From positions 1-50,014 of the forward strand of contig CAXHJY010000135.1 of the NCBI GenBank assembly GCA_964016885.1: a stretch of DNA of 50,014 nucleotides. Direction: 5' to 3'. This DNA is from Eledone cirrhosa. Taxonomy: Eukaryota. A program made the translations under genes and the position numbers. The notes beneath the pieces are model-generated. The model was given only the letters and a program-made list of their open reading frames with translations. It did not search any database and was not told the DNA's origin. Of the stretch, positions 14,860 to 49,772 are shown one piece after another. Positions within the stretch are counted from its first letter, which is position 1. Every line of letters starts with the position of its first letter.

Positions 14860-15090
14860 CGGGTATGTCAACATTTATAAAACAAATTTTGTATTTTATC
14901 TGATGAAAGCGCACCAAAACTGCCTTGGTTGCCCTTGAAATATATATAATAAAATAATTATAGTTTTATAAATATAGTTTCCATTTATTAATATTTTGAA
15001 TATTTACTCCACTTATTTGTTGAGTGCTTTATATCAGTTATAAAACTTTTAAGCTTGTTGAATACCAACAAATGAAATATAACTTCTGCA
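14860..15090 (+). mobile_element. Penelope-like terminus family A (diverged) with hammerhead core
   Basis: CTGATGA at 14900, stem II aagcgcaccaa/ttggttgccctt, GAAA at 14937, downstream actcc...gagtgctttatatcagttat. Confidence 0.65.
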
Positions 15091-15448
15091 TATATATATA
15101 TACATATATATATATATATATATATATATATAATTGGTGTTGGATGTTTAAAGCGTCCGTATGCGGTAGGCCGTATGAGCACTCGATGCACTCGTGGAGC
15201 AGAGTATAATATCACAGAAAAAAGAGAATCAGTGTTGCGACGAAAGGAATTTATTGGACATATTACAAATGTATCTCGGGCGACCAGCTCGAGGCACGAC
15301 CGATATGATGATCAAACCTGACTCTGAAATCTCTCGGTCGTCGGATACGTCTCGATTCTACGAAGCAGATTTTCCTATTTTTTTTCTGTGAGAGAGAGAT
15401 ATATATATATATATATATATATATATATATATATATATATATATATTT

Positions 15449-15636
15449 GTGGTGGATTGGCAGTATCGGTAGAGGGTCGGACGCCATGCTTTCCAGCATA
15501 GTTATGTCCCTTTACGATCTGAGTTCAAATCCCGCCGAGGTTGACTTTGCCTTTCATCCTTACGGGGTCGATAAAATAAAGTACCAGTAATGCACTAGAT
15601 AATTGCTGGCCTTGTGCCTAAAGTAGAAACAATTAT
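15449..15636 (+). mobile_element. SINE family 1, full length
   Basis: Complete A-box, B-box, body and tail. Confidence 0.88.
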
Positions 15637-16377
15637 ATTGAATAATAACTTTTTCTATAGTGATTAAAACCATACATTTAGGCGACATATACATGTGTGT
15701 TTGTTTGTGTGTGGTGTGTGTTTGTGTGCCTGTGCGTACGCCATATTTTGCAAAGTCATTAATCTCGTCCGACAAATACGAGGACGAAACCTTTTCGAAA
15801 GTTGACTGAATAATATATAATATGTATTGTGTTACATATTTTATACAAACAAAATGCAGAGCTTAACAATTAAAATTCCGCTCCTTTAACGATGCGAGAC
15901 TTTGACTAAGCGACTGCCATTAACACAAACACATCACGAGTCCTCCAGTTGCCTATTATGGAATGAAATATAATAAATTCTGTGGCTTACATTGTAAATG
16001 GTTTTGGTTTTTTTATGATGGTTGACAACAGCGGAAAATACTCGTTTTATTTATATTCCAGTCTATTTATAAACTAAACACAAACATGTTTTTTTATTTT
16101 TAAAAAGACATGCACGGAATCGAATTCAGATATTACATTCCTCTCATAATTGTTTTAACAATCAATTGTAATGGAATGATGATATAATACAGAAGGAAGG
16201 GAAACTCCTGCTTTTCACAGTTTCCATGAAGCACTATGAGGCGCTGTCATATATTGAGCAATTCTCACAATGCTGGCTTCTCTGATAAAATAGCTGTTGA
16301 AGTCAAAAGAAAAGCTCTTTGTCCTATTACGTATATGATAGACACTGATATATATATATATATATATATATATATAT

Positions 16378-16955
16378 ACACGATATTAATAAATGGAAAC
16401 TATATTTATAAAACCATATGTATTTCATTATACATATTTCAGGGATACCACAATAAATTATGGTATGCCTTTATCAGACAAAATACAATATATAACAGTT
16501 TTACAAATAAGTTTGACGTACCCTTTAAAATACAACCATTACTTTTGGAGGCTGTCTGGATAGTGATTTGTTCATATAATAAGTCATAGTGTTAAGCACA
16601 ATTAGAAAAAGACGGAGAGAAAGAAAGAGAAAAGAATTGTGCTTAACACTATGACTTATTATATGAACAAATCACTATCCAGACAGCCTCCAAAAGTAAT
16701 GGTTGTATTTTAAAGGGTACGTCAAACCTATTTGTAAAACTGTTATATATTGTATTTTGTCTGATGAAGGCATACCATAATTTATTGTGGTATCCCTGAA
16801 ATGTGTATAATGAAATAAATATGGTTTTATAAATATAGTTTCCATTTATTAATATCGTATATCTACTCCAAAAATTTGTCGAGTGCTTTATATCAGTTAT
16901 AAAAATTAAAATATTTACTTGTTGTATCCCAACAACTTTAAATAGAACTTTTGCA
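16378..16955. mobile_element. Fold-back Penelope-like terminus family A (~225-bp inverted arms, 31-bp purine-rich spacer)
   Basis: Left arm about 16378-16603 is the reverse complement of 16635-16860; right arm has CTGATGA (16761), stem II and GAAA (16798). Confidence 0.75.
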
Positions 16956-17079
16956 TATATATATATATATATATATATATATATATATATATATATATAT
17001 ATATATATATATTATATATATAAATTAAAGAGTTAAACAAGATTCAATGAGTATATCAAAGAACGAGTTTTACAGTAGA

Positions 17080-17330
17080 TTCGAAGCACTCTACGAGAAA
17101 TAATTTTCCAGAGTTATTAATATTAAAATACAATAGATGTTCTTTTGATCAATTACATTTTATTATACATATTTCGGAGGTACAACAGTACGTTCTCATC
17201 AGACAAAATATATTGATACATGACATACCCTGAGATGTTAAATGGTTAAGATTTAATCAAGGTAATCACTACCTCCGAAATATGTATAATAAAATGTAAT
17301 TGATCAAAAGAACATCTATTTTATTAATAT
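17080..17330 (-). mobile_element. Penelope-like terminus (A-related) with ~50-bp inverted repeat and hammerhead core
   Basis: Arms about 17132-17182 and 17270-17320. Minus strand reads tattttgt-CTGATGA-gaacgtac tgtt gtacctcc-GAAA, with downstream actc...gagtgctt. Confidence 0.6.
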
Positions 17331-17387
17331 TTGTATTTTTTTATATATATGTGTGTGTATGTGTGTGTACCTGAGTGCGCGCGTGTA

Positions 17388-17539
17388 GGCGGTGAATTGG
17401 CAGAGTCGTTAGAACGCCTGAGAGTGATCTGCGGTGATCGTCTAGGATCACTACTCCCTCAGTTCATATCCTGTCTAGGTCAACTTTGCCTTTCAGCCAT
17501 GTGAGGTCGATAAAAAAAATACCAGTCAAGTACTGGGGG
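17388..17539 (+). mobile_element. Old diverged SINE related to family 1
   Basis: TGGCAGAGTCGTTAG A-box; GTCAACTTTGCCTTTCA..GGTCGATAAAA..TACCAG. Confidence 0.65.
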
Positions 17540-47111: not shown

Positions 47112-47650
47112 GATGGCTGCCCCCTCATTATCGAGTATGGCAATTGCACGATATACCATTATTAATAATTATTAATTAATTCTATCGTGCAATGCCTGTG
47201 CGTGAAGATATTTTTTAAAGTGAGGGAATACTATGCACTGAGCCAATCCCACTCTCTGAGTGACAGTAGCTATAACCCGACAAGAAGAAAAGATCAACAT
47301 CATCGGTAACTACTGAGCCGCAGGTTTTATATCGGAGTTATCCCAGTTTCCTGAGTTACCTTCTCCTAGAAGAATGCCCTGACAAAGGCTACGGGTCCTT
47401 CACTCCCAATGGTTTAACCACGTGATCGGGTGTCCAGCCCGACTATTTCTATGTCCCCGCGCATATACATACACATTCACCCATGCATATACACATATAC
47501 ATACATATGTACATGTGTATATACATATTTACACACTTTTGGATGGCCGTTGACTCTTATGAGTTCTTTCGCCCTTTGTCAGGTTTTGTTTTTTGTCCTG
47601 CAGGGTGTCCAAAATCACCCTCCTCACCAAGTAAAGTTGGTGGGGTTGCA
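47112..47650 (-). mobile_element. Diverged relative of family C, interrupted by microsatellite
   Basis: GATGGCTGCC..TCGAGTATGGC, GCAATGCCTGTG, CCTTCTCCTAG, GACAAAGGCTA, TGTCCAAAATCACCCTCCTCACCAAG. Confidence 0.7.
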
Positions 47651-48171
47651 TACATACATACATACATACATACATTTCACTTACTGGATATAGAAACATC
47701 CCTAATTGCTTAAAATAAATAACGCCGTATTCGGTTAGCACAATAATCCTAGGCTTAAACAGAGATAAATATAATTTACGTACACGCCCCTACACATACG
47801 TTCCCGTTTGTGTGTGTTTATGTATATATATATATACATACATATATATATATACATATATATACTTACTTATACACACACACACATATATATATATATA
47901 TAAATAAACATATATATATATATATATTAGATACATATGCAAATATTTAGCTTTGTATATTTTTATATATATACATACGTATATGTATATATATAAATAT
48001 ATATATATGTGTGTGTGTGTATGCGTGCGTGTGGACGAGTGTGTGTTTGCGTGTATGCGTGTGTACGAGAGAGAGAGTGTGTGTGCGTATGTGTATGTGT
48101 GTATTACCAGAGGATTACAGAATTATTTTACAATGTCGAGTCAGTCCCTAATAAAGTCGTGCTTCTGTAAA

Positions 48172-48357
48172 ATAATTGTGTCTACTTTAGGCACAAGGCC
48201 AGCAATTACCCAGTGCCTTACTGGTACTTTATTTTTATCGACCCCGTAAGGATGAAAGGCAAAGTCAACCTCGGCGGGATTTGAACTCAGATCGTAAAGG
48301 GACGTAACTATGCTGGAAAGCATGGCGTCCGACCCTCTACCGATACTACCAATCCAC
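48172..48357 (-). mobile_element. SINE family 1, full length
   Basis: Reverse-complement copy. Confidence 0.88.
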
Positions 48358-48578
48358 CGACAGTTCAACGTACTTCACACCAACATGGCCGTAAGATCAC
48401 TGCTGCTGCTACTACTACTACTACTGCTACTACTACATAATTGTGATATATTTCCGAGGAAGAAAAGACGATGTACTCTCCACTACTTTAAAATTGCAGC
48501 TTACAGCTCAGAAAGAAACGAGAGTTCCCCTGCTAGTCCCGGTCGTATCTCAGCGTACTTAATAGGTAAGGTTATGTA

Positions 48579-48678
48579 GCCGAGGTTGACTTTGCCTTTC
48601 ATCCTTACGGGGTCGATAAAATAAAGTACCAGTAATGCACTGGGTAATTGCTGGCCTTGTGCCTAAAGTAGAAACATT
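48579..48678 (+). mobile_element. SINE family 1, 5'-truncated
   Basis: GCCGAGGTTGACTTTGCC...GTAGAAACA. Confidence 0.82.
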
Positions 48679-49124
48679 TATGTAAAAATTCCAGAGTAGA
48701 CAAAAGTTAATTGCTTCAATACAACACACGTAAATGGCTACCATAATTCTATACCCGTACTCGAGCTTCTGCCACACTTCATGCTGCAACAGAGCGTACG
48801 GCTTCCACTGTCTGCATTTATTATGCAACAATGCACAATCGGTGCGTGTGGCTACATCAGCGGGTCTCGCCTAATCAATAACCAATCGATCGACAGAATT
48901 TGATTCCAATCCGTGCCGCCTATAGCAGTAAATGCAACAGGTGACACAGTAGTACATTGGTAACTGAAATCCTGACGCTTCATCAAAATACCGTCAACTA
49001 ATTTGCCACTTGTTCAGAAATGTACGTGATGGGAAGGGGTCGAGATTCTATTCGTTGGTCCCTAAATCTAAACATCGAGTATTCACCTGGGAATTCACGT
49101 TATACTCCCTGGATATATATAATA

Positions 49125-49309
49125 GTCGAACACTGATGGATTATATTCGTAGTACTAGAGCACTCAGTCCATGGGACGAGTTTGGTAGAAGTAGTTCCAC
49201 AACAGTTAGTTCACCATACCGAGAACAGATGTTTCACCTTAATCGAATACTCAACTGAGGGTGAAACATTTGTTCTCGGTATGGTGAACTAACTGTTGTG
49301 GAACTACTT
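49125..49309. mobile_element. Fold-back (~51-bp arms) Penelope-like terminus
   Basis: About 49189-49239 is the reverse complement of 49258-49309; arms contain GAAACAT(C/T)TGTT; minus strand continues into the actc...gagtgct motif. Confidence 0.55.
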
Positions 49310-49529
49310 ATATTTAGATAGATAGATCTACTTATATATACATAGATAGATCTACCCGCCTGATTTTGCATCAATCGATCACCAATACTTTGTTATAACC
49401 AGTCTATTCATCAGAGCATGCAAGAATGGACTACCTATAACGATAATTTGTTATCCCGTATATATATATATATATATATATATAGAGTGACTGCTAGAGT
49501 GAACCTCTTCAAATGAAGTTGATGTTTAT

Positions 49530-49772
49530 TACGGTATGTCGAATATATTTATCTATAAAACTGTTTATATTGTATTTTGTCTGATGAAGGCATAGCATAT
49601 TGTTAATATGATATCCCCGAAATATATATAATGAAATAAATATGGTTTTATAAATATAGTTTTCCATTTATTTAATATTGTAAATATACTCCAAGTATTT
49701 GTCGAGTGCTTTTATATCAGTTATAAATATTTACTAGTTGTAACCCAACAATTTTAAATATAACTTTACATG
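49530..49772 (+). mobile_element. Penelope-like terminus family A with hammerhead core
   Basis: CTGATGA at 49581, stem II aggcatagcatatt/aatatgatatcccc, GAAA at 49619, and the family's 3' tail. Confidence 0.7.

Follow-up and report, generated by a model that had tools for sequence, protein, structure and literature searches.

What are the hammerhead-like motifs scattered over a 50,014-nucleotide (nt) stretch of Eledone cirrhosa DNA (assembly GCA_964016885.1, contig CAXHJY010000135.1, forward strand; hereafter the window), and to what kind of element do they belong? An initial annotation made from the letters alone had recognized seven such motifs, with a C opposite C or U at the fourth pair of stem II in each of them. 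Our analysis points to type I hammerheads in the pseudo-long terminal repeats (pLTRs) of Hydra-clade Penelope-like elements (PLEs), predicted to cut weakly after AUA, only as a dimer and probably with the aid of the element's own protein; we put the probability of this reading at about 0.82. The window is AT-rich DNA dense in (TA)n microsatellites, and the genome from which it comes has 3.0 Gb. Argonauta hians was the source of the single named protein match, in keeping with a cephalopod.

Fold and predicted cut site of the window copies

CTGANGA...GAAA cores were found at all seven sites proposed (14900+, 16761+, 17202-, 18089+, 19676-, 22451- and 49581+; that at 19676 reads CTGAGGA). The stem II changes quoted for them were correct, as was the C opposite C or U at pair 4 in every copy. 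The copies, assigned to lineages by their stem II sequence, are as follows.

14892..14956 (+): predicted type I hammerhead, lineage D; core 14900, predicted cut 14948/14949 (AUA); upstream GGTATGTC at 14862-14869, hairpin at 15006-15027, (TA)n from 15090
16349..16577 (-): eighth copy, inverted 5' partner of the 16761 insertion; core broken at 16477 (CTGATAA, G8 to A), short 3' end running into (TA)n
16753..16817 (+): predicted type I hammerhead, lineage B; core 16761, predicted cut 16809/16810; upstream GGTACGTC at 16716-16723, hairpin at 16865-16886, (TA)n from 16955
17156..17210 (-): predicted type I hammerhead, lineage F, short stem II; core 17202, predicted cut 17164/17163; upstream GGTATGTC at 17229-17222, hairpin at 17114-17086, partial inverted copy at 17270-17331 (+)
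18081..18151 (+): predicted type I hammerhead, lineage E, long stem II; core 18089, predicted cut 18143/18144; stem III ATGCGCAT, C.U at pair 4, upstream AAGTGTTT at 18048-18055, hairpin at 18194-18220
19619..19684 (-): predicted type I hammerhead, A/B group; core 19676 (CTGAGGA), A.A at the first stem II pair, predicted cut 19627/19626; short-ended, with a long-end remnant on the opposite strand at 19755-19793
22395..22459 (-): predicted type I hammerhead, lineage B; core 22451, predicted cut 22403/22402; short-ended inverted copy whose long end with hairpin lies at 22540-22680 (+)
49490..49775 (+): lineage A 3' end (pLTR); its 286 nt match the pLTR of a full-length element (L032) with 100% identity
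49573-49638 (+): predicted hammerhead of this lineage A end; core 49581, predicted cut 49630/49631; upstream GGTATGTC at 49533-49540, hairpin at 49688-49709, (TA)n from 49773

The short end of the 22451 copy recurs three more times as a unit of about 150 nt plus microsatellite (22539-21905 on the minus strand; 22238-22048 and 22084-21905).

In all seven copies, GAA is followed by an 8-nt palindrome (ATATATAT, ATATGTAT, ATGTGTAT or ATGCGCAT), an A and an 8-nt strand that pairs at 8 of 8 positions with the 8 nt preceding CTGA. The initial annotation had drawn a long-looped, AU-rich stem III and had failed to form a convincing stem I. Stem III is instead the loop-less palindrome directly after GAA, and stem I had been missed because stem III was drawn too long; the copies had been chosen without reference to stem I, yet all of them pair fully there. 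The core CUGANGA...GAA, the A15.1-U16.1 pair and an H at the cut (positions follow the standard hammerhead numbering) were present in seven of seven copies, with AUA as the cut triplet, and three helices surround the core, stem I being open-ended. We conclude from this arrangement that the window motifs are probably type I hammerheads with a predicted cut after AUA. The hammerhead proposed at the outset is thus more complete than was thought, having three stems, core and cut site, and the label "atypical" is fair for stem II, with its fixed C mismatch and weak first pair.

A generic type I descriptor gave nine matches in the window, six of the seven copies and three from other families; the reversed window and all 20 block shuffles gave none; the 17202 copy was missed by the stem II filter of the descriptor because of a copy-specific A.C pair. 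Within a monomer, stem III can form only a 2-bp hairpin at a computed cost of +4.7 kcal/mol, whereas the 8-bp self-duplex of two copies was computed at -2.2 to -10.5 kcal/mol in six of the seven copies and at +3.8 kcal/mol in the 16761 copy, in which stem III is ATGTGTAT and that of its lineage ATATGTAT. These energies indicate a motif apparently built for pairing as a dimer through the palindromic stem III.

Two flanking features had also been reported. The upstream GGTAYGTC is present in six of the seven copies and is replaced in the 18089 copy by AAGTGTTT at the equivalent place, and the downstream ACTC...GAGTGC hairpin is present in five, (TA)n being reached first in the 19676 and 22451 copies.

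Covariation across lineages

Copies from the genome were sorted into 25 lineages by their stem II sequence, with one natural medoid copy representing each. Two representatives, G3 and J, came from a search demanding G at position 11.4 and were removed, and the covariation, RNAalifold and alternative-fold tests were made with the remaining 23. Of the 460 cells that the fold pairs, 87.6% were paired, compared with 73.3% after shuffling (0 of 500 shuffles were as high, a count that is not a probability; the test is partly circular), and slid registers gave 29-55% (at most 54.6%). Two-sided changes were found at 15 of the 20 pairs, across all three stems. RNAalifold independently returned stems I and II with two-sided changes at 14 of 14 pairs, leaving column pair 19/54 open. 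Whereas U, A, C and G all occur at the free N7, the core bases do not vary, and every copy has an H at the cut; the invariance of the core is the weaker point, because the core was in the filter.

Unpaired C at the fourth pair of stem II

Pair 4 of stem II is a conserved irregularity of the motif. Its 5' base is C in all 23 lineages and never stands opposite G, while pairs 2, 3, 5 and 6 swap among A-U, G-C, U-A and C-G; with G3 and J included, pair 4 is paired in 2 of 25 representatives. Genome-wide, C was opposite C, U or A in 75,046 motifs, with C-G in 239 (0.3%; 239 of 75,285 copies with C) and a base other than C in 2,835 (3.6%); among the matches listed, these last two kinds were scattered single-copy changes over the lineages. 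In a sister group that has C-G as the basal pair of stem I, 12,730 motifs had C.C and 87 had C-G at pair 4 (control: 32), some of the 87 belonging to a separate small old family that pairs at pair 4. The mismatch noticed initially is therefore real and lineage-wide.

At the first stem II position (10.1-11.1), where a type I hammerhead would have an R-Y pair, 20 of 23 lineages are paired (11 A-U, 6 G-U, 3 G-C), the exceptions being A.C in the youngest lineage and U.U in two others. U.U is common at this position in the published Hydra rows (PMC8557442). Lineage A fixes its A.C in 2,858 identical copies, and its close relative A1 has A-U.

Parent element

The window copies are, judged by their sequence relatives, most probably truncated 3' ends (pLTRs) of Hydra-clade PLEs. 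This bears out the context that had been named for hammerheads at the outset, since elsewhere in the genome the pLTRs flank open reading frames (ORFs) with reverse transcriptase (RT) and GIY-YIG domains. Identical motif pairs 3,969-4,022 nt apart flank an ORF that is intact in two of three loci and frameshifted in the third. The intact product (736-737 aa; L031 and L033) is encoded by a single ORF between pLTRs, with RT followed by a C-terminal GIY-YIG, and the element reads pLTR-ORF-3' untranslated region (UTR)-pLTR-(TA)n, with an inverted truncated copy on its 5' side. An inverted hammerhead lay at most 1.5 kb upstream in 12 of 30 lineage A loci, and 26 of these 30 loci end in TA-type repeats, the other four continuing into an ORF.

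The protein P0001 carries RWR (37), SDKT (116), YRDD (351), CNCRDRSKC (595, CxCx5C), IVY...YVG (614, GIY-YIG-like), CDLC (693, CxxC) and CKH (720, CxH). These match the Hydra-clade diagnostics given in section 11 of PMC8557442, namely the RWK-type motif, DKT, the CxCx5C linker, CxxC and CxH about the conserved E and N, and the absence of CX2-5CxxC; the likeness to the published Hydra alignment was judged by eye. The Naiad clade, described in PMC8557442 as having an N-terminal GIY-YIG, DKA and no canonical hammerhead, was ruled out, the endonuclease being C-terminal here, the motif DKT and not DKA, and a hammerhead present.

In tblastn searches over 293 loci, all five window lineages adjoin related ORFs. 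Identity to P0001 was 99-100% for lineage A, about 80% for B (pLTRs flanking the ORF, L094), 65% for D (pLTR preceding it, L153), 54-56% for F (pLTRs preceding ORFs, L104, L107 and L108) and 36-46% for E, whose motifs lie 1.0-1.25 kb 3' of the ORF ends in seven loci. ORFs linked to the sister lineages I1 and I2 are 37-42% identical. No P0001-related ORF was detected in the window itself by tblastn; it holds truncated ends only. At another locus (L095:1964-9139), the place of the Hydra ORF between two lineage E hammerheads, here separated by 7.2 kb, is taken by an unrelated non-LTR element with two ORFs (320 and 976 aa), possibly an insertion with duplicated target.

Insertion ends and twin hairpins

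Taking the first position of the TA run as the end of an insertion, we found two fixed end sites, about 50 and about 140-150 nt 3' of the predicted cut (A, 50 and 139-142; B, 48 and 139; D, 50 and 141; F, 52 and 150). Tandem copies running into the ORF show what lies beyond each site: a first hairpin, ACTC...GAGTG, starts 7-9 nt past the first, and a second, GCTCC...GAGCG, starts 6-9 nt past the second, which places the two hairpin starts at 57/148 nt from the cut in A, 55/148 in B and 61/159 in F. The first hairpin is conserved over the lineages except for its loop, which varies. Where long ends meet (TA)n, the element has TA, CAT or GTAT, which suggests priming by short homology.

This anatomy fits, by analogy, the model of the anole PAc element (PMC11167929). 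There, the tail is defined by two internal start sites of reverse transcription, uncut RNA serves as the principal template, and the hammerhead needs the protein in order to cut. Every insertion examined in E. cirrhosa spans the cut site, so that its template would be uncut or re-joined RNA.

Copy number and age

A single pattern gave 75,735 exact matches in the genome and none in the reversed control. A wider pattern set found 78,120 motifs, to which the sister group adds its 12,730, about 90,000 altogether or roughly one per 33 kb; these are counts of motifs, with inverted partners included and copies mutated within the pattern missed. The 51-nt core at 49581 has 2,858 identical copies in the genome, and lineage A is therefore very young. 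With 49500-49760 as query, 892 candidates were obtained, and the 40 that were scored were all 100% identical; the other four window queries gave between 121 and 2,955 candidates, the closest of them 91-99% identical.

As chance finds in the flanks of loci L001-L293, we came across at least ten further hammerhead families with palindromic stem III of 6, 9 or 10 nt. The genome-wide hammerhead load is thus above the counts given.

Proposed mechanism and alternatives

How might such a motif serve a PLE? A transcript of tandem copies would carry two hammerheads about 4 kb apart, and two copies could pair through the palindromic stem III, permitting a weak cut after AUA. The protein of the element would bind the twin [AG]CTCC...GAG[TC]G hairpins, and reverse transcription may begin just 5' of each hairpin, giving long and short ends. 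Three features, namely the unpaired C, the weakness of the first stem II pair and the absence of a loop in stem III, could together slow the cut or make it conditional on licensing by the protein or by a second copy; to this proposal we give somewhat less than even odds. A more specific version is doubtful: that the fixed unpaired C is a selected control making the hammerhead protein-dependent, and the duplicated ACTC/GAGT hairpin a protein landing site that sets two RT starts. If it were true, the C and the twin hairpins would form a compact RNA code for copying versus cutting of a Penelope transcript, in a family that is still transposing.

Several observations weigh against a dimeric, Hydra-type hammerhead. 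Of the 4 sequencing runs listed, all from one study, none is recorded as RNA. The Rfam hammerhead models, a comparison suggested with the initial annotation, matched neither of two copies, even with E values up to 10 admitted. For the whole window, the best 150 of 706 Rfam matches held only microsatellite-driven microRNA matches and no hammerhead. A match to this library is a test of detection and not a defining feature of PLE-type motifs. When single copies with flanks were folded freely, stems I and II both formed only in some of 13 representatives (B, C, E2, F). The covariation figures overstate independence, because the lineages are related and the filter required the core and four stem I pairs. 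The youngest lineage may be nearly inactive because of A.C at its first stem II pair. P0001 has no Pfam family match, and its domains were assigned by motif; it carries GVKF at residue 84, resembling the GxKF/Y that Hydra reportedly does not conserve, and the G of this motif is not kept in most of seven aligned homologues. Finally, the second hairpin of lineage D was unmatched by the pattern in the single junction copy.

Another explanation takes the unpaired C not as a brake but as a docking contact or protein-binding site of an efficient ribozyme or ribonucleoprotein. In canonical hammerheads, contacts between stems I and II form where C10.4 sits. C10.4 is invariant in 23 of 23 lineages, even where the linked ORFs are 37-42% identical to P0001, while the base opposite varies (C, U, A); any mismatch could serve as a brake, and a fixed C suggests a specific contact. 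However, we found no conserved stem I partner for C10.4. Moreover, the mismatch is missing from the published Hydra hammerheads and the small old family of the E. cirrhosa genome has C-G at pair 4, and we consider this explanation rather unlikely.

The upstream GGTAYGTC or AAGTGTTT could also invade the 5' strand of stem II, with G to C10.4, and switch the ribozyme off, the mismatch then favouring the switch. Six of the 25 representatives (F, F2, F3, E, E3 and G2) show pairing of this kind above shuffles, with 7-8 bp of complementarity and a shuffle p of 0.00-0.05, lineage E has altered motif and stem II together (GUGUUUU with AAAACAC), and the duplex with stem II was more stable than that with stem III in 20 of 20 sets (the A1 motif having been mis-picked). 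In the other 19 of 25 representatives, however, the complementarity did not exceed that of shuffles. Comparison of matched with permuted partners gave p=0.057, the lineages not being independent, and there is essentially a single covariation event. Sister lineages retain the mismatch without the upstream motif, which moreover can pair equally well with stem III or distal stem I. Such a switch is improbable.

It is still less probable that the hammerhead is a catalytically dead relic retained as a fold or as promoter DNA. The A.C first pair of the 2,858 identical young copies would agree with loss of activity, as would reports that PAc hammerhead mutants leave in vitro insertion unaffected (PMC11167929) and that Naiad elements thrive without hammerheads (PMC8557442). 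Against decay stand the two-sided changes in all three stems and the constant core bases and H at the cut beside a variable N7, the latter point being weakened by the presence of the core in the filter.

A non-coding retrozyme family would account for the short, ORF-less copies of the window, but the copies are not 150-450-nt head-to-tail arrays, and on their 5' side they are variable or inverted and continue into the 3' UTR and ORF of full-length elements; this very improbable reading is largely refuted for lineages A, B, D, E and F. The alternative fold raised initially, a type III hammerhead cutting after the upstream GUC, was rejected as barely credible: although the motif pairs 6 bp with bases after GAA in nine of the 17 lineages that bear it, the core-adjacent stem I is nearly absent (0-1 pairs in 13 of the 17 and 3, the maximum, in the other four), stem III breaks after two pairs in B, C and G2, and the motif is absent in six of 23 representatives.

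Other elements in the window

The window also contains hammerheads and retrotransposons that are distinct from the family described above.

2030-2140, duplicated at 4820-4930: inverted pairs of a second, unrelated family of type I hammerheads; cores 2084- and 4874-, degenerate partners 2092+ and 4882+; stem III ACAG/CTGT with 8-nt loop, short stem II with U.U at its base
9240-9315 (-): degenerate hammerhead-like motif; GAA is followed by the palindrome ACCATGGT, and no stem I forms
23487-24214 (-) and 45878-46369 (+): pieces of a further non-LTR element, the first with a weak RVT_1 match, the second resembling by eye a restriction-like endonuclease end
31689-33419 (-): 5'-truncated relative of the neighbouring non-LTR element
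33609-38920 (-): non-LTR retrotransposon, which we take to be L1/Tx1-like; 625-aa ORF1 and 1165-aa ORF2 (endonuclease, RVT_1, zf-RVT)
42398-42440 (+): third type I hammerhead; 6-nt palindromic stem III AGTACT, 5-bp stem I

Comparison with known systems

The closest relatives are the Hydra-clade elements, including Hydra-1_Obim, as described by Craig et al. 2021 (PMC8557442). Shared with them are the single ORF of RT and C-terminal GIY-YIG, the RW[KR], DKT, CxCx5C, CxxC and CxH motifs, (TA)n targets, pLTRs, inverted 5' copies and a type I hammerhead, which in that clade has a near-palindromic stem III of 3-4 bp and a stem II that often begins with a mismatch. Hydra-1_Obim differs from the E. 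cirrhosa family in hammerhead and protein start. Furthermore, the E. cirrhosa unit is about 4.0 kb long, compared with under 3 kb for most published Hydra elements, its tail is about 90 nt instead of 30-40, and its stem III is loop-less, while the 26 Hydra rows of File S2 have loops of 1-3 nt. The pair-4 mismatch was seen in none of these 26 rows, which were compared by eye and derive from a pairing descriptor.

PLE hammerheads in general are weak, dimeric type I motifs with a palindromic stem III (PMC4209133; PMC6765202). The minimal PLE hammerheads (Cervera and de la Pena 2014, PMC4209133) share with our family type I topology, location in pLTRs, palindromic stem III, a long helix II and many dispersed truncated copies with opposite-strand pairs 100-700 bp apart, and a variant from D. 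virilis has a bulge in helix II. By comparison, the E. cirrhosa motif has a longer stem III (4+4) and stem I (8 bp), mostly A-U or G-U at the first stem II pair in place of the typical G-C, no extra base after A9, and about 90,000 copies versus 2,000-9,000.

Poseidon PAc of Anolis (Frangieh et al. 2024, PMC11167929) likewise has a hammerhead upstream of two fixed tail-defining ends and a stem-loop at the RT start. It belongs to a different clade, however; in E. cirrhosa both ends precede the ORF and each is followed by its own hairpin copy, and the joins show microhomology to (TA)n, whereas PAc is reported to start without homology. Metazoan non-LTR retrozymes also combine type I hammerheads with very high copy numbers (126,247 in axolotl), but they are short non-coding head-to-tail repeats, in contrast to the ends of coding elements found here (PMC7229834; bioRxiv 10.64898/2026.07.22.740005). 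For the giant squid, 235 Rfam hammerheads were reported (PMC6962438).

The kind of element and the kind of ribozyme were thus already known, and the copy number is high for PLE hammerheads. Modest but new are the fixed unpaired C, the loop-less stem III and the twin hairpins at the two insertion ends; among open-access works, we found no description of a hammerhead variant with this mismatch. The function of PLE hammerheads has been called unclear (PMC8557442), and in vitro the hammerhead is dispensable for PLE insertion (PMC11167929). Why PLEs keep hammerheads is an open question, for which the E. cirrhosa family is an unusually good test bed: it offers intact young copies, dozens of lineages that supply natural covariation, a conserved irregularity for whose repair one base change suffices, and two mapped insertion ends with candidate signals.

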